Assembly: GCF_001677475.2 (NCBI RefSeq)
Contig: NZ_CP015229.1
Length of the DNA: 64,000 nt
DNA from: Escherichia coli
GTDB taxonomy: Bacteria; Pseudomonadota; Gammaproteobacteria; Enterobacterales; Enterobacteriaceae
Strand: one strand, 5' to 3'
The notes under the pieces are model-generated. The model made no database searches. It saw only the letters and a list, made by a program, of their open reading frames with translations, and was not told where the DNA came from. A program made the translations under genes and the position numbers. Below are positions 1 through 12,722 of this stretch, in pieces (within the stretch, counting starts at the first letter, position 1; each line of letters starts with the position of its first letter).

Positions 1-480
1 GACACTTTGTTGTGCCGGGCGGTTTTGCAGAGAAGCGATCACTTCTTCGGTATCCAGATAATGGTAAGCCAGCATATAGGTGAGCTCATCAAGCACCACT
101 AAGTCGTAACGCTTGTCAGCCAGCATCCGTTTGCTTTCCGACCAGACCTCTTTCGCCGCGTCGATATCCGCTTGTCGGTTCTGTGTTTCCCAGGTAAAAC
201 CGGTTCCCATAATATGAAACTCAACCCCCAGCGGCTGGAGAAGGTTGTATTCGCCGTTGTCCCATTGCCCCTTGATGTACTGCGCAACCCCCACCGTTTT
301 GCCATGACCCACCGCGCGCGTCACAGTACCAAACGCGGCAGTGGATTTCCCTTTGCCGTTGCCGGTGAAAACAATCAAGATCCCTTTTTTCTCTATCGCC
401 GCCGCGACGCGCGTATCGACCTGTTCCTTCAATTTCTGCTGGCGCTGCACATGCCGTTCTGTTGAAATTCGCGCTTCCAT
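1..480 (-). CDS. ATP:cob(I)alamin adenosyltransferase paralog (BtuR/CobA/CobO family), N-terminal part; gene continues past window start
   Basis: Minus-strand frame from ATG (complement 478-480) with AGGA Shine-Dalgarno upstream; translation MEARISTERHVQRQQKLKEQVDTRV...GILIVFTGNGKGKSTAAFG...VVLDELTYM matches BtuR P-loop and motifs. Not in ORF track because it runs off the window. Confidence 0.8.
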   Translation of the reverse strand, partial: MEARISTERHVQRQQKLKEQVDTRVAAAIEKKGILIVFTGNGKGKSTAAFGTVTRAVGHGKTVGVAQYIKGQWDNGEYNLLQPLGVEFHIMGTGFTWETQNRQADIDAAKEVWSESKRMLADKRYDLVVLDELTYMLAYHYLDTEEVIASLQNRPAQQSV

Positions 481-489
481 TCATTTTCC

Positions 490-2142
490 TTAATGTCCCG
501 CAGGGCAACTGGCGCAGCGGTGTTGCTGCTCAAACTGACTAAAGAAATTATTGCCTTTATCATCTACCAGGATGAATGCGGGCAGATTTTCCACTTCCAT
601 CATCCACACCGCTTCCATACCCAGCTCCGGGTATTCAAGGCAACGCAGACTTTTGACATATTCTTGCGCCAGTAACGCAGCTGCACCGCCAATACTTCCC
701 AGATTGAAGCCGCCATGTTTGTGACAGGCATCGGTGACCTGCTGGCTGCGGTTACCTTTCGATAACATCACCAGACTGCCGCCAGCCGCCTGGAAGGTAT
801 CGACATAACCGTCCATTCGACCGCCCGTGGTTGGACCCAGTGAACCGCAGGCCATGTTCTCCGGTGTTTTCGCCGGGCCAGCGTAATAGACAATATGATG
901 CTTCAGGTAATCCGGCATCGGTTCGGCGCTATCCAGCCGCGCTTTTATTTTGGCGTGGGCGATATCGCGTGCCACTACGATGGGACCACTTAACGACACG
1001 CGGGTGCCTACCGGTAATCTGGCGAGATCCTGCATCACGTCACGCAACGGACGGTTTAGATCCAGATGTACATGTTGCGCGTGATTTTCTTCCCGCAGTG
1101 AGGCTGGAATATATTGCCCCGGATTGTGTTCGAGTTTTTCCAGCCAGATACCGTGCTTGTTAATTTTTGCTTTGATATTGCGATCGGCAGAACAGGAGAG
1201 CGCCATAGCTATCGGACAAGAGCCACCGTGACGCGGCAGACGAATGACGCGAATATCATGAGCGAAATATTTACCCCCAAATTGCGCACCAATACCAAAT
1301 TGCTGACTGGCCTCGAGCAACACTTTTTCCAGCTCAATATCACGGAATGCTTGTCCCTGCTCGTTTCCGCTGGTGGGCAAATTGTCGTAATATTTCGTTG
1401 AGGCCAGCTTGGCAACTTTTAAGGTTTGATCGGCTGAAAGCCCTCCGACGACAAAGGCGATGTGGTAAGGCGGGCAGGCAGCGGTGCCCAGCGATTTCAT
1501 TTTTTCGATTAAAAATGCGGTCAGTTTTTCTGGTTGCAATAAGGATTTGGTTTCCTGATAAAGTGCGGCTTTATTGGCGGAGCCGCCCCCTTTATTAACA
1601 CAGAGAAAATGGTACTCATTACCAGCGACAGCGTTGATATCAATCTGCGCCGGGAGATTGGTTTGCGTATTGACTTCGGTATACATATCCAGCGGCGCAT
1701 TTTGTGAAAAGCGCAGATTATTTTCCTGGAAAGTGGTGTAAATGCCTTTGCTTAAGGCTTCAGCGTCGTTACCTCCGGTCCATATCTGTTGCCCTTTACT
1801 GGCAACAATAGTTGCGGTGCCGGTATCCTGACAGTTGGGTAATACCCCTTTTGCTGAGACTTCAGCATTACGTAATAACTGCAACGCAACGTATTTATCA
1901 TTACTACTGGCCTGCGGATCGTTAAGAATGCTGGCGACCTGTTGCAAATGAGCGGAACGTAAGAAAAAAGAAGCTTCATAAAATGCCTGCCGGGCAAGCA
2001 GCGTTAATGCTTCAGGTGCGATTTTTATCACTTCTTCGCCGTCTAATTCCGTTACTGTAATATGCTGATCGCTAATTAATGTATATTCTGTACCGTCTTT
2101 ATTTTGTAGAAATGGTTCTTGCCAGATAAATGGTTTGGACAT
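490..2142 (-). CDS. fumD: Class I (Fe-S) fumarate hydratase family; probable mesaconase/fumarase
   Basis: 550-aa ORF, length and sequence typical of FumA/FumB-type hydro-lyases; sits in a glutamate mutase/methylaspartase cluster. The fumD symbol is from my recollection of the E. coli O157:H7 locus. Confidence 0.8.
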
Positions 2143-2249
2143 ATTTCACTTTTCACCTTAAACGTTAGTGTTACTTAATTGCCGTCTAACTTCATGATCC
2201 GGCTTATAAAAATGCATAGTCATTGGCTTCTGATTGCTTAAGATCCCCC

Positions 2250-3530
2250 TCAGGGCAGAGCAACGTTCGATTCATTGGGTTTTAATGCTTTACCCCGACA
2301 GCCCTCGCCGAAATGTTCGCCTTCCCACCGACTCACCATCGCAGCGCCCATTGCGTTGCTCATGACGTTTGTCGCGGAACGCCCCATATCAAGGAACGGA
2401 TCAACGCCCATCAGCAAGATCAGCCCCGCTTCCGGAATATTGAACTGGTTGAGCGTGGCGGCGATAACCACCATTGAAGCGCGTGGTACGCCAGCCATTC
2501 CTTTCGAGGTCAACATCAGGATCAACAGCATGGTGATTTGCTCACCGATGGATAAATGGATATTGCAGGCCTGGGCGATGAAAACTGTGGCGAAGGAGCA
2601 GTAGGCCATTGATCCAACGAGATTAAATGAGTAGCCAATGGGTAAGACAAAGCTGGCAATTTTGGGGGAAACGCCAAATTGCTCCAGTTTTTCAAGCGTT
2701 CCTGGAAAAGCCGCTTCAGAACTGGATGTGGTAAATGCCAGCAGGGCGGGTTCCGAAAGGGCGCGGGTCAGGCGTCTGATGCAGGGGCCGACATAAACGA
2801 TGGCCAGACCGATAAGCAGCACCCAAAGTAACAACATGGTGAAATAAAATTCACCCATAAAGATCCCGGCGCTCACCATAACTGCCAGTCCTCGTTCAGC
2901 AATCAATGCTGAAATAGCGGCGAATACGGTCAGGGGAGCGAAGAGCATGACGTAGCCAGTGAGCTTTAACATGGCATGTGCCAGCGAATCTAAGGCGTGA
3001 ACGATGGCGCTGCCTTTCTCGCCAATCGCCGTCAGGCTACAGCCGAGGAAAATTGAGAACACCACGATTTGCAAAATTTCATTGTGCGCCATGGCATCGA
3101 CAATGCTGGTGGGGAAAGCATGCGAAATAAATACTTTTAGCGTGAAGGGTTCTGACGCGACCACTCCAGTGGTTTCGGCACCGTGTGCAACAAAATTAAT
3201 TCCTGTACCTGGCATGAAGAAATTTACTGTTATTAAGCCTAAGGCAATTGACAGCAATGAGGCGCAAATAAATAAAAAGAGTGTTTTAGAAAAAATACGA
3301 CCAAGGGCTTTGGCATCGCCCATTTTAGCAATACCTACCACCAGGGTAGAGACCACTAACGGAGCGATAATCATTTTTATCAGTCGTAAGAAAATCGTCG
3401 TGAATATCGATATTTCTTGCGCATAGAGTTTTGCGGTTTCCGGTGAAGCAGTGTTATTGAGCACTACGCCGATAACCATTCCAAGTACCAGCGCCAAAAG
3501 AATCATCGTGGTTAAACTTATTTTCTTCAT
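2250..3530 (-). CDS. Dicarboxylate/amino acid:cation symporter (GltP/DctA-like), possible glutamate or C4/C5-dicarboxylate transporter
   Basis: Hydrophobic multi-TM ORF with DAACS-like motifs; start chosen at MKKISL (complement ATG 3528-3530) preceded by GGAGG; ORF-track start at 3551 rejected. Confidence 0.75.
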   Translation of the reverse strand: MKKISLTTMILLALVLGMVIGVVLNNTASPETAKLYAQEISIFTTIFLRLIKMIIAPLVVSTLVVGIAKMGDAKALGRIFSKTLFLFICASLLSIALGLITVNFFMPGTGINFVAHGAETTGVVASEPFTLKVFISHAFPTSIVDAMAHNEILQIVVFSIFLGCSLTAIGEKGSAIVHALDSLAHAMLKLTGYVMLFAPLTVFAAISALIAERGLAVMVSAGIFMGEFYFTMLLLWVLLIGLAIVYVGPCIRRLTRALSEPALLAFTTSSSEAAFPGTLEKLEQFGVSPKIASFVLPIGYSFNLVGSMAYCSFATVFIAQACNIHLSIGEQITMLLILMLTSKGMAGVPRASMVVIAATLNQFNIPEAGLILLMGVDPFLDMGRSATNVMSNAMGAAMVSRWEGEHFGEGCRGKALKPNESNVALP

Positions 3531-3580
3531 TTTTTCCTCCATCAGGTGCACGGCGATAAATCAGAATCAGGAGAAGTAGA

Positions 3581-3602
3581 TGCCTGAATAGAGATTCAGG
3601 CA
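3581..3602 (-). other. Perfect hairpin (tgcctgaat-aga-attcaggca) in intergenic gap inside the island operon
   Basis: Inverted repeat read directly between the DUF4387-like gene stop and the transporter start. Confidence 0.4.
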
Positions 3603-3690
3603 TCTACCTGCTATTACAACCTTACAAATAGCTGAAGTGTTGAACTGCAATAAGTGACGGGATGTCAGTTGGCTAAAAGTGTTCGGATTT

Positions 3691-4008
3691 TTACAAATCG
3701 AAACTCATATTTAATAAAGGTGCATGTTGCTGTGCACCATAGACATCATTGTCACCTACATTCCCGGAGATAATATCTCGTGGCATGACGATTTTTACTG
3801 CGTTAGAAGGATCAAACCAGACAATACGATGAATAAAGTCAGGTTCAACATGATATAAGCGCGCAATCAGTTCTGGGGTTAATTGCCCTGATGATTTAAC
3901 TCGCTCATAGTTTTCTTTGGTTTTAAATAAAATATCTAAAACCAGTTCGTAAGGTCCGGCATTTTTCGAACGAATGACTTGCGCCAGTGAGACAATTGAC
4001 TGTTTCAT
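3691..4008 (-). CDS. Small conserved protein of unknown function (DUF4387-like), partner of upstream AtuA-like gene
   Basis: 105-aa ORF; start overlaps upstream gene stop by 4 bp; family assignment from memory of DUF1446/DUF4387 pairing. Confidence 0.6.
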   Translation of the reverse strand: MKQSIVSLAQVIRSKNAGPYELVLDILFKTKENYERVKSSGQLTPELIARLYHVEPDFIHRIVWFDPSNAVKIVMPRDIISGNVGDNDVYGAQQHAPLLNMSFDL

Positions 4009-5375
4009 GCCTGAACTCCTTCTGGCGTCACCTGTTCAATATGGAAATCAAAACGCAGAGCGTCGTTGGCTTCAATCAGGTGATATATGGAAAATTCGTA
4101 TACTGGCCCGCCCTGGATATCAGAAGGGGAGAACGGGAACGCCAGGTTGCCTGCGGTAGCGATGCGGTTTTCATAGCCGTAGTGCAGCATAGTAGAGCGC
4201 ACCAGCGAGCAAACGCTGTTGGCAATTTCCTGGGTCGATGCAACTACATCTAGCACAATCCCCAGCTCATGCCCGGCAGTTTGCATCGGTTCATGGTCGC
4301 CCATCACCCCGTTTTTGCCGTACAGGTGGAAATTGATGCGAATGCTGTCATCGTCGAGCGACAGGTTACGCGAAACGCTGGTTTTGACTTCATCGATGAT
4401 TTTATCGATCCCGGCGATCATGATCGGGTCGCGCGTTCCTGCGATGGTCAGACAGCGGAAGCCCACTCGTCGCGCACCTTCCAGTTTCAGGGCATACGGC
4501 GTTCCTTCATGCTTAGAACCGCTGACGTACACTTCGCCGTCATTGACCGCTTTAAATGTGCAGCCTTTCAGGTTCAACACGCCGCCAGGTCCAGGCAGGA
4601 AGTAGGGATCGGATTTCTCATACAGTGTGTGTGCAGCCGCTGACGTTTCGGTAAATTTACGCTTCGGATTAAATGTCTTCAGCGTAAAGCCGTTGTCATC
4701 AATGATGCCCATCGCACAGTCAGAGCCTGAGCCGGGCGTTGCGGCGATTGCCGCGCATTCAAGGATTTTCCCACAATGCAGCGCCAGACCTTCATCAAAG
4801 CCTTGCATGATCGGTAGCGCAGCAAAGCAGGCCGGGTCGTAAGCGCGCCCGCCCAGCACCACTTGCGCGCCTTCTTTCAGCGCCTGCTGGAAGGGTTCGA
4901 TGCCCATTTGCGCGACGATATACGTACTTTCGTCAATCGCGTCGTGGGTTAACGGCGGGACAAAATCCAGCGCCGTGATTTTGCCGTTATCCAGCGCCTG
5001 GTGGACGATGGCTTTGTCAACGTCTGCCGGGATCAACGCCATCGAGAACGAGAGGTGCTCTTCCCGGGCAATCTCATGAATTATTTCTCGGCACCACTCC
5101 AGGTGTGGTGCGGCACCAGAACCGCCAGCCGTTCCGATCACCACCGGTATATTATTTTGCACGCCTGCGGTGATCATATAGCGCAGATCGCGCTTGACCC
5201 CTGCGCGATCGGTAAACGGTTTGCCTGCCCCGAGGTAGTGGGGGCCTGGATCGGAAGAGCCTGCATCAACGGCGATCAGATCGGGCGATTCTGCCATCGC
5301 TTTGCGGAAGCTCTCTTCCGGGAATCCATACCCGAGGATTGCCGTTGGCGATAAGACTTTAAAAGAACGAGCCAT
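4005..5375 (-). CDS. AtuA-like (DUF1446) family protein of unknown function
   Basis: 456-aa ORF, in-operon between methylaspartase and the DUF4387-like gene; family call from sequence feel, not a search. Confidence 0.6.
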   Translation of the reverse strand: MARSFKVLSPTAILGYGFPEESFRKAMAESPDLIAVDAGSSDPGPHYLGAGKPFTDRAGVKRDLRYMITAGVQNNIPVVIGTAGGSGAAPHLEWCREIIHEIAREEHLSFSMALIPADVDKAIVHQALDNGKITALDFVPPLTHDAIDESTYIVAQMGIEPFQQALKEGAQVVLGGRAYDPACFAALPIMQGFDEGLALHCGKILECAAIAATPGSGSDCAMGIIDDNGFTLKTFNPKRKFTETSAAAHTLYEKSDPYFLPGPGGVLNLKGCTFKAVNDGEVYVSGSKHEGTPYALKLEGARRVGFRCLTIAGTRDPIMIAGIDKIIDEVKTSVSRNLSLDDDSIRINFHLYGKNGVMGDHEPMQTAGHELGIVLDVVASTQEIANSVCSLVRSTMLHYGYENRIATAGNLAFPFSPSDIQGGPVYEFSIYHLIEANDALRFDFHIEQVTPEGVQA

Positions 5376-5378
5376 TTG

Positions 5379-6620
5379 TTAATCCTTAGCCTGCAACAGC
5401 GCGATAGTACGATTCATTTCGTTGAAGACAATATCGAGGCCTTCGTCAAAGCCCATCCCAGGTTTTACCAGCATACGCATAGGGCGAGCGGCAAGGGCGA
5501 CGTGGACACAGGTGCGTGCACTGACATCAGTTTCATTGCAGGTGCCGCCCTGGTACGCTTCCATGTTGTGGCTGTTGCAATAAAGAACTGCATCGACGAT
5601 GTTGTGAATACTGCCCAGATCCGGGGTTTTGATTTGCACCATGTGGCAACTGGCGGCATCAGTGAAATCAACAATATCCTGGTAGGTGTTACACCATTCA
5701 TCGGCCACAATTTTCACGCCGGAACCGAGGCGCATCAGCTCTTTGGTAATCGCGGTCAGCAGGCGAATTTGATCGGGCTTGTTACCGGCATCGACCGGCC
5801 CTTCAATGTAGAGCGGCAGGCCTTGCGCTTCTTTTTCCAGGCTGGCGATGTATTGCGCACAGCGAAGCGGATCCATATCGAAGATCAGACCGATAGTGCC
5901 GTATACATCGATGTGCAGGGTTGGGTGGTAGCGTGCGCTGGTGCGCTTGCTCAGAATGCGATCCGACAGCCAGCGGACATATTCGCGCAGTTTTTCACCT
6001 TTAAAGCCCAGCTTCTCTTCGACGTTATTAATCAGCGCATGGGGCAGCACGTCGATGCCTTTAAGGATCATCTTATCGACGGCGATATATCGATCGTCGC
6101 CGCTCTGACCAAATAATGGAATGGATTCCGCCACGCGTGGCAACTGCCATTCATCACAGACCACTTCAGTTTTCAGACGGCCGGTTGCCAGCGCGGCAGC
6201 ATCAAGCAGCGCCTGTGATAATCCGTAGCGCACGGCGGTATGCAGCAAGTTGCCGTCAATACGCAATTTGTCGAAGAAACGGGCATTCGGCAGGAAAGCA
6301 TCCACATCGCGGCCTACCAGTAATGGCTTAATATGGTCGTTGAGGAACGGAATAAAGTGCTCTGCGAGGAACAGTGGATCGCGACCACCTGCCCCGGAAT
6401 ACTGTACGGCAGCACAGTCACCTACAGCGACCGCGCCGTTTTCCAGAATCAACTGTACCGATACGCACTCCCCAGCCTGACGTACGGCGTTAAACCCTTG
6501 TGTTACTGGCTCCCCGGTATAAAAAAAGCCGTCGTGACCCGCTCCGTTTTTTATCGCCTGCTGGTCATCGAAATAGAATGAGGAATAGCCAGCGGTGAAC
6601 AGGGCCTGTTTTATTTTCAT
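5379..6620 (-). CDS. 3-methylaspartate ammonia-lyase (methylaspartase)
   Basis: 413-aa ORF with blocks CAAVQYSGAGGRDPLF, HIDVYGTIG, HMVQIKTPDLG, KPGMG.DEG matching clostridial methylaspartase; enolase-superfamily length. Confidence 0.9.
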   Translation of the reverse strand: MKIKQALFTAGYSSFYFDDQQAIKNGAGHDGFFYTGEPVTQGFNAVRQAGECVSVQLILENGAVAVGDCAAVQYSGAGGRDPLFLAEHFIPFLNDHIKPLLVGRDVDAFLPNARFFDKLRIDGNLLHTAVRYGLSQALLDAAALATGRLKTEVVCDEWQLPRVAESIPLFGQSGDDRYIAVDKMILKGIDVLPHALINNVEEKLGFKGEKLREYVRWLSDRILSKRTSARYHPTLHIDVYGTIGLIFDMDPLRCAQYIASLEKEAQGLPLYIEGPVDAGNKPDQIRLLTAITKELMRLGSGVKIVADEWCNTYQDIVDFTDAASCHMVQIKTPDLGSIHNIVDAVLYCNSHNMEAYQGGTCNETDVSARTCVHVALAARPMRMLVKPGMGFDEGLDIVFNEMNRTIALLQAKD

Positions 6621-8065
6621 TATGGTCTTCCTATTAATTTACTGTGGGATACAGCATTGATGTCATCTACAACCATCTGGAATGTCGGTTGGCGTCCTTC
6701 AAAGCGTGCGCGTTCCGCAACGTAATCGTGGTGGAGGTCGAGAATATCTTTTGGCAATGGAACGGCTCCGGCTTCCAGTACGCGTATCGCGCCGGTGTTG
6801 TCACGGACCGGAAGAATTTTGCCCGCGTTGCAGGCGGCTGGCGCAAATGGCACATCCAGTACGCCCGCTTCAAATGCCAGCACCGTTCCGCGCGCAATAT
6901 CATCATTACCCAGTTCGAACACTTTATTCAGTACTGCGCGAACCTCGCTCTTAATCAGTTCAATTTCCAGTTCAACCGCAGGGCACGGCGGAAATTTCTG
7001 CTCATTGACCATGTTGAGCATCTGGCGGGAGGCTTTTAGCCCCTGAATGTTGGCAGCGGCAGTCGGGATGCCCCAGGCTTCGTGCGGACTTTTGGTGATG
7101 ACTTTGGTGGCACCAGACATCCCCGCGACGGCTGCGCCCCAGGAGATAATAGCGAACGCTTTCGATTCGTCTTCCGGAAAGCCGCCCATCCACTGGTGAA
7201 ACACGGTACTTAATTCATAGTCGGTATAGCCATAGCTCTGAAAGTAGTCATGTGCAAGTTCACGCAGAGACTGGATCGCCGCAACATCCTGCGTCAGGCT
7301 GCCGACCTGTCCATAACCAACGGTGATAGATTTCACACCCTGTTCCAGTGCCAGCAATCCTTCGATTATCGCGATAGAGTGCGAGATAAACGGCGGGATC
7401 AGCGTACCCGTTAGTGGGCCAAACGGTTCGCGGTTGATGCGGATCCCGTGTTCTTCATACATCCCCATTAAACGGTCGCAGTACTGCCAGTCGCGGATCG
7501 ATTTTTCCAGCGTTACGCGTTTGGCATACGGAATGTTGTAGGAAATGCCGCCGCCTTCATAACTGGTAAAGCCGCTGGACATCGAGATTTCAGCCAGCAG
7601 ACGTGCATCTGGCGTGCCGTGGCGGATCTGTAGCGGTTTTTGCAGGGTTTCGGTGAGGCGACGGCAAGCAGCGACACCATGGTTAACTACCGGTAAACCG
7701 TTCAGTTTAGAGGTTCCGGCTTCGATGGATTTTTTAATCCCTACAGCCGCTTCTTCGTACCGATTCAGACGGGTATATGCATCGATGGTGCTTGGCAGCA
7801 GATCGCACTCTTCTTGTAGTGTTTTCAGTAGTTCGATGTGTTCGTCCATCAGCGCCACACCTGCGCGTGGTTGGCTAAGGGTTTTTCCTTCCTTGTCTGC
7901 TTTCAGCAGCGCAAGAGAGAAGCGTTTATGCTCAGGAATGGTTTGTTGGTATTTAACGCCATCTTCAAAGTTTTCAACATCCTTGCCGGTTTCCCAGGTT
8001 TTCAGTACCTGTTGCCGCTCGGTCATGAATTCGTCATGGGTTAATTTCTTATTTCGAAGTTCCAT
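6620..8065 (-). CDS. Glutamate mutase epsilon (E, catalytic) subunit
   Basis: 481-aa ORF; MELRNKK..., PRAGVALMDEHIELL, HGTPDARLLAEI, FHQWMGGFPEDESKAF match GlmE/MutE; 1-bp overlap with downstream methylaspartase gene. Confidence 0.9.
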   Translation of the reverse strand: MELRNKKLTHDEFMTERQQVLKTWETGKDVENFEDGVKYQQTIPEHKRFSLALLKADKEGKTLSQPRAGVALMDEHIELLKTLQEECDLLPSTIDAYTRLNRYEEAAVGIKKSIEAGTSKLNGLPVVNHGVAACRRLTETLQKPLQIRHGTPDARLLAEISMSSGFTSYEGGGISYNIPYAKRVTLEKSIRDWQYCDRLMGMYEEHGIRINREPFGPLTGTLIPPFISHSIAIIEGLLALEQGVKSITVGYGQVGSLTQDVAAIQSLRELAHDYFQSYGYTDYELSTVFHQWMGGFPEDESKAFAIISWGAAVAGMSGATKVITKSPHEAWGIPTAAANIQGLKASRQMLNMVNEQKFPPCPAVELEIELIKSEVRAVLNKVFELGNDDIARGTVLAFEAGVLDVPFAPAACNAGKILPVRDNTGAIRVLEAGAVPLPKDILDLHHDYVAERARFEGRQPTFQMVVDDINAVSHSKLIGRP

Positions 8066-8083
8066 TGATTGCAGCCTTAATTG

Positions 8084-9472
8084 TTATAGGGTTAAGCATT
8101 GAATACTGGTGCGCGCGGCGGCCAGCGGATCGACTCTGGCGACGTTTGCCAGCAGTGGTAATAGCCCCCGGGAATCGCGGTAATATTCAAATTCGGTCGG
8201 TAAGAGAATGCGTTTACCGTCGTCGTTTAACTCGCGGTATTTCAACCAGTGATGCATATCGAACTGACTGGCACGCGAGAGCCATCCGCCGGAACCCACG
8301 ACTTTACGCACGGTTGTCAGGTCACGTCCCATCTGTAAATCGACATTGCCGACGCAGGTGCAGACCTCTTTTTTGGTGCCCGCATGTCTTTCGGTGGCAT
8401 AACCCACACACAGTCCGGCCAGGACGGTATCGAAATATTTCTCTTCTGCATTTGCGGGTAAGTAGTCGGGATGAGCGACTAAATGACGGAGATAATGATA
8501 AAAAGCGTCCAGCTGTGCGGGTTGCTGAGCAAAATTCACATTGACTAACTCTTTCGCACTTTCACCAACCACCACTGCCGAGACGCGCATTCCCAGATCG
8601 CCTTCCACCGTCCGTTTTACGAAGGGTTCCGGTACGCCGTGTAAAACGGTGTCGGGCGAGAGCGTGTTGGCACAGGCGGAATAGACATCGGTGGTTGCGC
8701 CGCCCATGTCGATCAGCATGAACTCTTTCCAGCTGTGATCGACGTTACTGATTGCCTTAACCAGTTCAAAGACCGTCCATGGTGTCGGCCTTGGTTCTTC
8801 GCCTGTTTTATCAACAATGACATCCAGCCCTTTCCCTTTAACGATGCGTTTAAGGAATATGTCGCAAATAGCCTGGCGTGCGGCTAAAGGGTTCGGATGG
8901 TCAAGATCGGGCAGAACGTTGTCGACGATGGTCAGGTCTTTATGCCCGAGGAGCTCCTGCACCTCGTCCTGAATATCCCGGTTTCCGGCATAAATAATGG
9001 CGCAGTCGAGTTGGGATTCTGCCAGCACACGGGCGTTATTCAGTCCGTAACTTTCTTCTCCGCCGTCGGTGCCGCCGGTGAACAAGAGAATATCGGGCTG
9101 CGTTTCTTCCAGTGCCTGGATATCACGGCGGTTCAGCTTGTAGGAGTAATATTGCGCAATTTTAGCCCCCGCAGAGTGAGCGGTTACTTTCGCGGTTTCC
9201 AGGGTGATAGAAGGCACCAATCCCATTGCGGCAACCGCCAGCCCACCTTTGGCAGAGGAGGAATACTTTAATGCAACCTCACCACTGTTTAACAGGGGGA
9301 GGGCATCATCTACGTTTAACACCTGGTCCAGGCTGGAGAAAAACCCCTTCGCCAGATGATGGGTGGTGGTTGGGGTCAGAACGTGGTTAACCAACGTTAA
9401 CGCGTCCCCCTCCCGGGTGAAGAGGGCTGCTTTGGTCCACGTCGAACCAATATCGACAGAGACGATTTGCAT
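8084..9472 (-). CDS. Glutamate mutase component L (MutL/GlmL-type putative reactivating chaperone)
   Basis: 462-aa ORF between the S and E subunit genes, the position GlmL occupies in clostridial operons; N-terminus [18 protein letters not shown] is actin/hsp70-fold like. Confidence 0.8.
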   Translation of the reverse strand: MQIVSVDIGSTWTKAALFTREGDALTLVNHVLTPTTTHHLAKGFFSSLDQVLNVDDALPLLNSGEVALKYSSSAKGGLAVAAMGLVPSITLETAKVTAHSAGAKIAQYYSYKLNRRDIQALEETQPDILLFTGGTDGGEESYGLNNARVLAESQLDCAIIYAGNRDIQDEVQELLGHKDLTIVDNVLPDLDHPNPLAARQAICDIFLKRIVKGKGLDVIVDKTGEEPRPTPWTVFELVKAISNVDHSWKEFMLIDMGGATTDVYSACANTLSPDTVLHGVPEPFVKRTVEGDLGMRVSAVVVGESAKELVNVNFAQQPAQLDAFYHYLRHLVAHPDYLPANAEEKYFDTVLAGLCVGYATERHAGTKKEVCTCVGNVDLQMGRDLTTVRKVVGSGGWLSRASQFDMHHWLKYRELNDDGKRILLPTEFEYYRDSRGLLPLLANVARVDPLAAARTSIQCLTL

Positions 9473-9921
9473 CAGATTGCCTCTTCAAGAATGCGAGTAT
9501 CAACGTCATGACGTTGGTTGATATCGTGGGCCATCAGCTGACAAACATCTTCTAAGTCATGACTTGGGGAAAAGACGCGATCAAATCCCATCTCTTTGAA
9601 CTTGGTTTCCACGTCAGCGAAGTCATGTTTTCCGACCACCAGGTTACCGCCCACATAGAGCAGGATGTTACCCAGCCCACGCTCGATGCAGCGTTCGCGC
9701 ATGCCCAGACAATCGATATCGCCATGCCCATAGATAGAAGAGACGACAATCGCGTCAGCGCCAGTTTCAATAGCAGCATCAATATATTCGTCCTGGCTGA
9801 CCATTACGCCCAGATTAATGACTCTGAAGTCGTGGTTGCTAAAAACGCGGTCCAGAACTTTATTGCCTACTGCATGGCAGTCCGCGCCAATAACGCCAAT
9901 CACAAGTGTTGCTTTCTTCAT
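9472..9921 (-). CDS. Glutamate mutase sigma (S, B12-binding) subunit
   Basis: [24 protein letters not shown] carries the DxHxxG cobalamin-binding motif; start moved to internal ATG (complement 9919-9921) with AAGGA SD; ORF-track start 9984 rejected. Confidence 0.9.
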
Positions 9922-10468
9922 GGGTAATCCTTTGTAAGACAGAGAGTAAAATAAGTTACACACGTCGTATTTATGGCCGCTCATAACGGCACAGGTTTAA
10001 TATCACAGGAGTGTCTTTATCTGACCGTAATGTTGCAATTGATCTATTTTCAAAATGTCTTTCGGGAAATGATTGTTTAAAGTGTGTTTTCAAATTCTCA
10101 TTTTAATTCAGTGTGTTATGTCAACTAATGTCATGAATGTTAAATTTTTAAAATTAACTTGATTTGATGTATTGAGATAATTGTGATCAACTTCTAATTT
10201 GCATTTTTGTGACGTGGCTTTAGCCATGAGTAAATGCATTTCATAAAAGTTAAGTCGAATTTCACTGCAATTCATCTCTGCTTAATGTAAAAATAATGTT
10301 GAAAATAACAAATAATTAATGATTCATGCGAATTATGACCTTTGTTAGCTCTTTTGATTTTTCGTAAAAAAGAAAAGCACATGAAGGTGCTACCAGTACG
10401 AGAAACGTTAATCAAAAGTTTTATTACGTCTGGCAATAACGCAGGCCATTTTTCGCGACAGGAGGGAT
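9922..10468 (-). promoter_or_regulatory. AT-rich leader/promoter region of the glutamate mutase operon
   Basis: About 550 bp non-coding, very AT-rich, directly upstream of the first operon gene; no specific sites identified. Confidence 0.4.
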
Positions 10469-10891
10469 TTAATCAGTATAATCCTCATACAATAGGTCAG
10501 GATTTACAGAACCGTTAACGGGGTTTTGGTGTTGAAATTTAGAAATGGTGGAGTCAATCAATGAAGACAGTATCGAAAAAATGACTGTGTCAGAACTAAT
10601 TTCAATTAATCCTTCTCGTTGTTGATCAAAAAAGATATTTATCTTGATTTCATTTGTACTACGGCAATCAATATGTAGTAATTTTTGATCGCTGAGATTT
10701 TCTGTTTCATAAATGTTTTTGGCGATAGTCGGATGTATTGATGCCAGACATCTGCTCAGATAAGCCATATCCTTTAAGGAACTCCCCGCTGAGTAGAGGA
10801 TGTCAGAGAATTTTTGTGTGTCAACTGTTGTCTCTGAAGCGTATGTTGCATTGACAGGAAGAGTATTGAAAGAGATCTGAGATGGTATCAT
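10469..10891 (-). CDS. Hypothetical acidic small protein (140 aa), second gene of AT-rich two-gene module
   Basis: Complete ORF in AT-rich DNA; Asp/Glu-rich, no motif I recognise. Confidence 0.55.
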   Translation of the reverse strand: MIPSQISFNTLPVNATYASETTVDTQKFSDILYSAGSSLKDMAYLSRCLASIHPTIAKNIYETENLSDQKLLHIDCRSTNEIKINIFFDQQREGLIEISSDTVIFSILSSLIDSTISKFQHQNPVNGSVNPDLLYEDYTD

Positions 10892-10972
10892 TATTTAAAT
10901 CTTTCCGTGAGTAATAAAAATTAATCCCCAGGCATTGTTTAGCAATATTTGCCATAGGGGATATATAGAAAA

Positions 10973-11917
10973 TTAAAGTATTTTATTGGCTTCGGTTAAC
11001 TGATCTATAACCAGTGCCAGATTGGTAAACATTTTGAAAAAGCGATACTGGCTCGGAATATCTCTTTCAAAGACGAAACATTCAAGGTCATTGTTTGAAA
11101 AATAAAGGACTAGTGTTGCTGATTCGTCAGGGAAAACATGGAAATGTATCTGGTTACCAGAAGGAGGATAGTCCAGAAGAAGGGTATCTTTGCCCGTCAC
11201 ATACCTGTTGTTGTCGTGGACGCTACGCTCACACTTCATCAGAGGTGTCAGGATACTCATGTATTCATCTGATGTTAATTTATTAAAATCATCATTCATT
11301 TTAAAGAAACGATAAAGTAACAGTACATCCTCTTGCGTAACCGGTTCGTTTGTTTTTAGAGGGAAATAAGCGGGAACCAGAAGATGAGGTTCTAATCTAT
11401 TTTGTTGAGCGCTATAACTGAATTTGAACATAAATTCTGGATCGCTCATCAATTGAGCGACATAATTATGCCTGGCTTCAAAAATTTTAATTTTTATCAG
11501 GTTGAATAAGTCTGTTTCGTCATCCTGTATTAAAAGACATTGGCCATAGCAGCCTGGATTTTTTTCATTATAAGCAGAAACGGTTATTCTGTCAGAGGTG
11601 TCAACGTTATATTCAAAAGCCAGATAGTGACCTTCTTCATCGCGATTTGTTTCCAGGTTATTTAAATTCATCACATGAAGTGTTTGCAATGCTGATTCAA
11701 TGAGTTGTTGACTCTCTGAGGTAAATGTTTTGCGCTGCGTTGTATAAAGTGTATCAATTCCAACGACTATCCGATGTGGATCAAGGATGGCGGCAATCAT
11801 CTTTATTACCTGCACAGTCACGGGTGATGTCATTGATTCTTCATCTGTTTTTAGAGGATCATTAGATGGCCAACCTGAGAAGCGATTGACAGCCGAACCG
11901 ATATTATCTGGACTCAT
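10973..11917 (-). CDS. Hypothetical protein (314 aa), first gene of AT-rich two-gene module
   Basis: Complete ORF, same strand and 81 bp upstream of the 140-aa ORF; no TM segments or known motifs recognised; spot-checked 60-bp lines are about one-third G+C. Confidence 0.55.
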   Translation of the reverse strand: MSPDNIGSAVNRFSGWPSNDPLKTDEESMTSPVTVQVIKMIAAILDPHRIVVGIDTLYTTQRKTFTSESQQLIESALQTLHVMNLNNLETNRDEEGHYLAFEYNVDTSDRITVSAYNEKNPGCYGQCLLIQDDETDLFNLIKIKIFEARHNYVAQLMSDPEFMFKFSYSAQQNRLEPHLLVPAYFPLKTNEPVTQEDVLLLYRFFKMNDDFNKLTSDEYMSILTPLMKCERSVHDNNRYVTGKDTLLLDYPPSGNQIHFHVFPDESATLVLYFSNNDLECFVFERDIPSQYRFFKMFTNLALVIDQLTEANKIL

Positions 11918-12722
11918 AGCAGCAACCTCATTGTAATCAAGCGAGGCGCTGAGCGTACTCGGCTATAGAAAAACTAACTTGCAAAAATCGCTCATTTTTC
12001 ATTTATCAGGCGAAAGTGGCCTCTGTTCACTCAGAAACAATCACTCCCGCTAAGTCATACCTGTTTCATCGATACATTTAAGTGATTATTACTAATGAAA
12101 CAATAACATAACGGGCTTACGGTCGGTGCTCATAAAGGCAACAATCAATTAACTTTGATAAAAATATGTTATGTAAAATAGCAACAAATTGGCTACTCTA
12201 ATCAATTGGTATTATAAAAAGAGGATAAGGCGGTTCTGTTAAATAAAACACTGGTTTTTTATCTATACCTTTTCATTGTAATAATTGTGTTGCATAAATA
12301 TTTCACAATAAATTAACAATAAAATCACCAATGATCTATGGTTTATACATAATTAACATATTTGGTTGGTTTTGATATAAATCAATTTTTAATTCTTGAA
12401 AAAAATCTGCAAAACACGATAAATTGTCGTAGATCAAATTGGTGAGATCGTGACAATTTCGCTATAAATTGATCACTGTCGAAAAATGCAAATTTGCTCA
12501 ATAAAAACCTGTTTATTGTAAGGATTTTGCGGCGTAATATAATTACGGGATCAATTTGGTTTATTCATTAACATATTTGTAACTTTTTTATCATTGTCTT
12601 TTCCTCTTTTGATGAAATGGCAACGATAGAGGCGAGCAAATAATTTTGTATTGGGGCATGCGTGTGACCCTTTCTAACGGGGTTCACTCTCGGAGTCTTC
12701 ATGCGATGAGCAAGGAGTCATG
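11918..12722 (+). promoter_or_regulatory. cydAB upstream regulatory region, AT-rich
   Basis: Long AT-rich non-coding region before cydA; in E. coli the cydAB promoters are controlled by ArcA, FNR and H-NS (established knowledge); individual sites not resolved by eye. Confidence 0.5.

Follow-up and report, generated by a model that had tools for sequence, protein, structure and literature searches.

What is the function of two overlapping genes that lie between the methylaspartate ammonia-lyase gene (mal) and a transporter gene in a glutamate fermentation operon of Escherichia coli? The genes, which we call cmlA and cmlB, are in a stretch of 64,000 nucleotides of contig NZ_CP015229.1 (NCBI RefSeq assembly GCF_001677475.2), referred to here as the window. 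RefSeq names their products "acyclic terpene utilization AtuA family protein" and "DUF4387 domain-containing protein", without functional information, and a preliminary description of this DNA regarded the pair as uncharacterized and as corresponding to no known step of the methylaspartate pathway.

We predict, with a probability of roughly 90%, that cmlA and cmlB encode a heteromeric, nucleotide-binding (S)-citramalate lyase that functions without coenzyme A (CoA) or an acyl-carrier protein and catalyzes the final reaction of the methylaspartate route. The prediction is based on near identity to a crystallized enzyme and a shared operon position with it, a matching fold, gene context across phyla, the absence of citDEF and the coupling of the two subunits. 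It is important to emphasize that the function of cmlAB is already known, having been publicly assigned by others through Protein Data Bank (PDB) entries and a preprint, and our finding therefore adds no new biology. Its practical value lies in annotation: the labels in RefSeq, Pfam and NCBIfam (June 2026) are still "AtuA family protein" and "DUF4387", and re-annotation as cmlAB is possible in about one-fifth of complete E. coli genomes and in clusters of at least 10 phylum-level lineages. The pair and its translation signals are as follows.

4005..5375, minus strand: cmlA, predicted large subunit of a CmlAB-type citramalate lyase; 456 amino acids, ATG start, AtuA/DUF1446 family
3691..4008, minus strand: cmlB, predicted small subunit of a CmlAB-type citramalate lyase; 105 amino acids, ATG start, DUF4387
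4005..4008, minus strand: ATGA start/stop overlap of cmlA and cmlB (translational coupling), read from the sequence
4016..4021, minus strand: AAGGAG Shine-Dalgarno motif for cmlB, within the 3' end of cmlA, 7 nucleotides ahead of the ATG
5383..5387, minus strand: AAGGA Shine-Dalgarno motif for cmlA, within the 3' end of mal, read from the sequence

Identity and pathway position of the pair

The most direct evidence comes from two PDB entries, 9ERQ and 9EVF, released in October 2025. Over residues 1-456, the window's CmlA is identical to chain A of these entries at 419 of 456 positions (91.9%; phmmer E = 4.3e-291), and the full length of CmlB matches chain B with 88 of 104 positions identical (84.6%; E = 5.2e-57). 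The depositors named the chains "Citramalate lyase, subunit A (cmlA)" and "subunit B (cmlB)", both chains are present, and the entry titles refer to an "AMPPNP - citramalate complex" and an "ADP - pyruvate complex", where ADP is adenosine diphosphate and AMPPNP is a non-hydrolyzable analogue of adenosine triphosphate (ATP). The fold of the window's large protein is that of the solved large subunit. Chain A is 100% identical to the product of a Klebsiella michiganensis gene, and the arrangement there is glmS-glmL-glmE-mal-cmlA-cmlB-gltP-fumD, as in the window; because of this shared arrangement, we regard the window pair as the positional orthologue of the crystallized enzyme. Relative to the Raoultella/Klebsiella CmlAB of these entries, the window pair differs in its host, E. 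coli, and by 37 substitutions in CmlA and 16 in CmlB. The window's CmlA also has every residue that is invariant in an alignment of 30 CmlA sequences with at least 61% identity to it, an alignment in which it is itself the first row. Given the PDB entries for near-identical proteins and a preprint of January 2026 in which the enzyme is used, the view of the pair as uncharacterized is out of date.

This assignment fits a gap in the pathway that was recognized a decade ago. Kronen and Berg characterized FumD of E. coli O157:H7 as a mesaconase, left the fate of the resulting citramalate open in 2015 and remarked on the DUF1446 gene downstream of mal (PMC4682846). In the same work on E. coli ATCC 700728 (O157:H7), citrate lyase, isocitrate lyase and methylisocitrate lyase gave no citramalate lyase activity (PMC4682846). 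CmlAB is very probably the missing enzyme of citramalate disposal. More recently, CmlAB, obtained as a gift from the Berg laboratory, served for the in vivo cleavage of citramalate into pyruvate and acetate; an acetyl-CoA auxotroph grows on mesaconate only when it carries the cmlAB plasmid, and the carbon flow was confirmed by isotope labelling (bioRxiv 10.64898/2026.01.16.699985). In the route that we propose, glutamate would be converted to methylaspartate by GlmSE with B12, methylaspartate to mesaconate by Mal, mesaconate to (S)-citramalate by FumD, and (S)-citramalate to pyruvate and acetate by CmlAB. Contrary to the preliminary description, the pair would thus have a known pathway step, that of citramalate lyase, performed by an enzyme unrelated to CitDEF. 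That description had also guessed at an accessory enzyme acting on methylaspartate, mesaconate or citramalate, and citramalate proved to be the correct guess; its other proposal, a role in enzyme maturation, found no support. On our reading, cmlAB closes the gap of 2015, namely what becomes of glutamate-derived (S)-citramalate in E. coli O157:H7 and other enterobacteria.

A separate observation concerns existing annotations. CmlA is named "3-methylaspartate ammonia-lyase" in several public records, including those of three homologues in our set (P0002, P0060 and P0071). The annotation error of CmlA as methylaspartate ammonia-lyase was already pointed out by Kronen and Berg (PMC4682846).

We investigated gene context in GTDB genomes, a single one for each species, which were scanned with aligned CmlA relatives as the query; the best 80 loci were kept, all with at least 57% identity. 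These loci belong to Enterobacterales, Betaproteobacteria, Riflebacteria, Aminicenantes/Acidobacteriota, Spirochaetes, Lentisphaerae, Chloroflexi, Firmicutes, Planctomycetes and other lineages. cmlB directly follows cmlA in 79 of the 80, the single exception being at a contig end. The mal gene is adjacent to cmlAB in 72 loci, one of these copies being truncated at a contig end, so for this orthologous group the refuting pattern named in the preliminary description, a pair found mostly in genomes without glutamate mutase, is not seen. More distant AtuA/DUF4387 pairs (44-50% identity) and fungal fusions do occur without glutamate mutase. Seven loci have no adjacent mal, and five of these have full flanks of 10 kilobases (kb): one from Accumulibacter, three from Shewanella and one from Desulfospira.

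In these five loci, cmlAB has 57-68% identity, and the 10 kb on either side contain neither mal nor any glm or fumarase gene. Their neighbors are unrelated and include hrpA, an M4 protease gene, an RND-type (resistance-nodulation-division) efflux system and malQ. Outside enterobacteria, a conserved, unannotated gene for a P-loop protein (TsaE-like/AlaX-like) directly follows cmlB in methylaspartate clusters; one example is at 5050-5994 of locus L036.

The same 80 loci were used to look for the classical enzyme. Homologues of CitC, CitD, CitE, CitF, CitX or CitG (tblastn, E. coli queries) were found within 10 kb in none of the 80 loci and nowhere in the window, and neither CmlA nor CmlB has a Pfam or NCBIfam match to CitD (acyl carrier), CitE (lyase) or CitF (transferase). 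Clostridial methylaspartate clusters do carry the classical lyase (PMC4682846). The absence of cit genes from all 80 loci fits non-orthologous displacement of the classical lyase, and CmlAB would take the place of the clostridial CitDEF-type citramalate lyase without being homologous to it. The methylaspartate pathway would then exist in two versions whose final enzymes are unrelated.

The classical CitD-CitE-CitF lyase, as found in Clostridium tetanomorphum and encoded in E. coli by citCDEFXG with the accessory proteins CitC, CitG and CitX, shares with CmlAB the net reaction and the place at the end of the pathway (PMC4682846), but the two have no sequence or fold relationship. Whereas the classical enzyme has an acyl-carrier subunit with phosphoribosyl-dephospho-CoA and runs an acetyl-thioester cycle, CmlAB has neither and binds an adenine nucleotide instead. 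Like CmlAB, the citramalyl-CoA route, which consists of succinyl-CoA:citramalate CoA-transferase and (S)-citramalyl-CoA lyase, converts mesaconase-made (S)-citramalate into pyruvate and a two-carbon unit; however, it is CoA-dependent, yields acetyl-CoA, and relies on CitE/HpcH-like enzymes that are unrelated to CmlAB and are missing from most enterobacteria (PMC4682846).

The two proteins appear to act as one unit. When a concatenated CmlA+CmlB query was compared to 1.84 billion representative proteins, 3314 relatives were found, and all 22 long proteins (at least 520 amino acids) among the best 150 relatives are fusions, with a CmlA-like part at the N terminus and a CmlB-like part at the C terminus. 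These fusions provide Rosetta-stone support for a single functional unit. Together with the presence of both chains in the crystals and the near-universal adjacency of the genes, they uphold the earlier suggestion of a stoichiometric two-subunit unit. The two open reading frames and their 4-bp overlap, also reported earlier, can be read directly: the ATG of cmlB overlaps the TGA of cmlA, the minus-strand letters being GGC ATG A and the shared bases 4005-4008. Both the AAGGAG motif and the ATGA overlap are kept in three orthologous loci, which belong to the genera Klebsiella, Salmonella and Pseudescherichia. The ATG of cmlA, in turn, begins 3 nucleotides past the TAA stop of mal. The proposed DUF1446/DUF4387-like domains are recognized by Pfam: CmlA matches AtuA (PF07287, formerly DUF1446) with E = 1.8e-18 (residues 63-392 versus model positions 61-395 of 437), and CmlB matches DUF4387 (PF14330) with E = 2.9e-39 (residues 6-101 versus model positions 2-97 of 98).

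Purifying selection on both genes is strong. Compared to Klebsiella michiganensis, the nonsynonymous and synonymous substitution rates (dN/dS) are 0.044/1.158 for cmlA and 0.094/1.273 for cmlB, i.e., ratios of 0.04-0.07. We also considered that the open reading frame of 105 amino acids might have arisen by chance; this was ruled out by its Pfam E-value, dN/dS, adjacency to cmlA and occurrence in fusions.

Several points weigh against the assignment of citramalate lyase function. In the searchable literature, we found the 2015 work of Kronen and Berg and the 2026 preprint but no primary paper describing CmlAB, and the functional label derives from the names and titles that the depositors chose and from one preprint in which the enzyme is a tool. 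The evidence for citramalate cleavage comes, indirectly, from the Raoultella/Klebsiella orthologue, and is extended to the E. coli proteins by sequence similarity. Moreover, neither Pfam nor NCBIfam offers functional support for cmlAB, and NCBIfam (June 2026) has no model for either CmlA or CmlB.

These caveats make it necessary to consider what else the genes might do. The pair could assist glutamate mutase or methylaspartase as an accessory or maturation factor, e.g., a chaperone or cofactor handler, and not be a pathway enzyme. Such a role would agree with the tight operon linkage and the translational coupling to mal and glmSLE, as well as with the historical misannotation of the large protein as "3-methylaspartate ammonia-lyase" (PMC4682846). 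However, it is effectively refuted, given that the crystals hold citramalate and pyruvate and no mutase or lyase partner, and that CmlAB alone gives mesaconate-dependent growth to an E. coli host without genes for glutamate mutase or methylaspartase. In addition, a dedicated mutase accessory protein, GlmL, is already present, and pairs without mal or glm nearby exist both among orthologues (57-68% identity) and among more distant relatives. It is also conceivable that the E. coli pair, or the island that carries it, is a silent or decaying remnant, or that the enzyme acts on a beta-hydroxy acid other than (S)-citramalate. E. coli ATCC 700728 had no methylaspartase activity and did not grow on glutamate, and no conditions of expression were found (PMC4682846); the island is far from universal, with 1125 carriers (at 95-99% identity) among 5426 complete E. 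coli genomes, and distant family members occur in other organic-acid contexts. Nevertheless, we consider this very improbable. Both open reading frames are intact and full length with all invariant CmlA residues kept, the dN/dS ratios are low, neither the ribosome-binding sites nor the coupling is disrupted, and 1120 genomes retain at least 80% of the region at 95-99% identity; the proteins also share 92% and 85% identity with an enzyme that was crystallized with citramalate.

Possible role of the nucleotide

Given a citramalate lyase, the question arises of what the bound nucleotide does. In the crystals of the orthologue, citramalate is bound with AMPPNP and pyruvate with ADP. Across 123 superfamily representatives, the residues D42, G44, G87 (in the loop GTAGGSGA), G176, R177, D180, E299 and G305 are invariant, and we regard them as candidate catalytic or phosphate-site residues.

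We lean slightly toward ATP as a co-substrate of CmlAB that participates through acyl-phosphate chemistry, because the non-hydrolyzable analogue traps uncleaved citramalate and ADP accompanies the product. In this mechanism, the gamma-phosphate of ATP would be transferred to the C4 carboxylate of citramalate to form an acyl phosphate. Like the thioester of citrate lyase, the acyl phosphate would make the retro-aldol cleavage between C2 and C3 feasible, and this would give pyruvate and acetyl phosphate. Acetyl phosphate might then return its phosphate to ADP, on the enzyme or via acetate kinase, so that the net products would be pyruvate and acetate at no ATP cost. We prefer such a return of the phosphate because a lyase that hydrolyzes ATP would be too costly for fermenting anaerobes.

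There is partial precedent for this chemistry. In ATP-citrate lyase, a carboxylate is activated through acyl-phosphate formation ahead of C-C cleavage, and the enzyme requires CoA. Precedent also exists for a direct reaction: 2,3-dimethylmalate lyase, of the isocitrate-lyase/phosphoenolpyruvate (PEP)-mutase superfamily, cleaves a beta-hydroxy dicarboxylate directly to pyruvate and a free carboxylic acid. These are analogies of mechanism only, as no fold or sequence similarity of CmlAB to ATP-citrate lyase or to the isocitrate-lyase/PEP-mutase superfamily was detected.

A somewhat less probable reading is that CmlAB catalyzes the same reaction with a nucleotide that is bound and not consumed, serving as a tightly bound structural or allosteric ligand or in metal positioning. 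Cleavage would then be direct, through a metal-stabilized aci-carboxylate of the isocitrate-lyase/2,3-dimethylmalate-lyase type. The preprint speaks for this reading, and against ATP as a co-substrate, in several respects: cleavage is presented there as direct, to acetate, with ATP nowhere mentioned; evolved strains up-regulate Acs, an activator of free acetate; and high acetate is thought to be thermodynamically unfavorable to cleavage (bioRxiv 10.64898/2026.01.16.699985). The Acs up-regulation and the concern about acetate fit free acetate as the product, and they fit ATP consumption less well. The crystals, moreover, accommodate both ADP and AMPPNP. A gene for acetate kinase or pta is near cmlAB in only 1 of the 80 bacterial loci (and in one fungal locus), a lack of enrichment that agrees with a non-consumed nucleotide, although it is uninformative as a test for acetyl phosphate. 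On the other side, AMPPNP with intact citramalate and ADP with pyruvate are what would be expected of the Michaelis and product complexes of an ATP-using enzyme, and the conservation of the GTAGGSGA loop (G87) and of D42, R177, D180 and E299 appears consistent with a catalytic phosphate site. We therefore retain the co-substrate mechanism as our best guess.

Relatives outside the methylaspartate pathway

At 50% identity, the superfamily forms approximately 3,300 clusters; its bacterial and fungal members are either split or fused. In distant split pairs (44-50% identity), a DUF4387 gene is still downstream and mal and glm neighbors are absent. Three fungal fusions of 608-618 amino acids (L082, L087 and L088) adjoin genes for MmgE/PrpD, aconitase, proteins resembling isocitrate lyase (ICL)/PEP-mutase, a major facilitator superfamily (MFS) transporter and fungal transcription factors, and an acetate kinase gene adjoins one of the three. 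This context suggests that the fungal AtuA+DUF4387 fusions have roles in other organic-acid pathways.

AtuA, the namesake of the family, functions in acyclic terpene utilization in Pseudomonas and Thauera. It belongs to the same Pfam family, PF07287, which CmlA matches in part (residues 63-392). At about 600 amino acids (615 in Thauera), AtuA has the length of a fused CmlA+CmlB protein, and its architecture is probably the same, to judge by this length and the fusions. The substrate proposed for it, unlike that of CmlAB, is a CoA ester of terpene catabolism. To our knowledge, no activity of AtuA has ever been demonstrated. Tentatively, it has been proposed to be a lyase that acts on a tertiary beta-hydroxy acid and releases acetate (PMC4847356).

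Because this proposed chemistry, i.e., acetate release from a tertiary beta-hydroxy acid, equals that of CmlAB, lyase function might extend to the family as a whole. A bolder version, which we view as speculative and on balance doubtful, is that the entire AtuA/DUF4387 superfamily constitutes a new class of nucleotide-dependent, acetate- or acyl-releasing lyases that use an acyl phosphate in place of a thioester, with the P-loop protein encoded after cmlB in non-enterobacterial methylaspartate clusters as a third partner there. If this were true, Pseudomonas AtuA and the fungal fusions near genes for PrpD, aconitase and ICL-like proteins would perform analogous cleavages.

The operon and its genomic island

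The other genes of the operon were identified mainly with NCBIfam models, and these place cmlAB between mal and a GltP-like symporter gene in the E. coli glmS-glmL-glmE-mal operon, in agreement with the position given in the preliminary description. The genes are as follows.

490..2142, minus strand: fumD, class I fumarase/mesaconase (forms (S)-citramalate from mesaconate, immediately ahead of CmlAB); NCBIfam NF011921, 1279 bits versus a cutoff of 1060
2250..3530, minus strand: dicarboxylate/amino acid:cation symporter (GltP/DctA family); NCBIfam DctA and GltP matches with E ~1e-90, under the equivalog cutoffs; start according to RefSeq
5379..6620, minus strand: mal, methylaspartate ammonia-lyase (two steps ahead of CmlAB); NCBIfam equivalog TIGR01502, 545 bits versus a cutoff of 286
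6620..8065, minus strand: glmE, glutamate (methylaspartate) mutase subunit E; NCBIfam TIGR01503, 858 bits
8084..9472, minus strand: glmL, mutase accessory protein; NCBIfam NF040745, 505 bits versus a cutoff of 475
9472..9921, minus strand: glmS, glutamate mutase subunit S (B12-binding); NCBIfam NF002612, 252 bits; start according to RefSeq, from a 99% identical E. coli locus
10469..10891, minus strand: hypothetical open reading frame (RefSeq) of 140 amino acids, in a low-GC stretch
10973..11917, minus strand: hypothetical open reading frame (RefSeq) of 314 amino acids, in the same low-GC stretch

The region is an accessory island of E. coli, flanked by mngB/rtcB and cydA. The island codes for the entire route, i.e., uptake, glutamate mutase with its accessory protein, methylaspartase, mesaconase and citramalate lyase. 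Within it, the GltP/DctA-family symporter probably has a role in glutamate uptake. Scans for promoters and terminators over positions 1-12,700 gave sites no more numerous than in shuffled sequence, and we therefore claim no operon boundaries from these scans.

Clusters of related bacteria vary at the end of the operon. The window's gap between the symporter gene and fumD is only 107 nucleotides (2143-2249), as in Salmonella arizonae and Pseudescherichia. Among the loci compared in this respect (L003-L016), a glutaminase A gene (glsA) lies between these two genes in many Citrobacter, Raoultella and Lelliottia clusters. Many Citrobacter/Klebsiella loci differ from the window in the same way, as the window's operon has no glsA.

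Base composition varies both within the pair and along the island. The GC content of cmlB is 38.4%, versus 55.2% for the coupled cmlA. cmlB is also AT-richer than cmlA in all 10 other lineages checked, with the GC gap biggest in this window; because the trend is present in all of these lineages, we regard the low GC content as a property of the gene. Between glmS and cydA, a stretch at 9922-12719 is mostly 32-38% GC, versus 51% for the whole window, and appears to have been acquired separately from the rest of the island.

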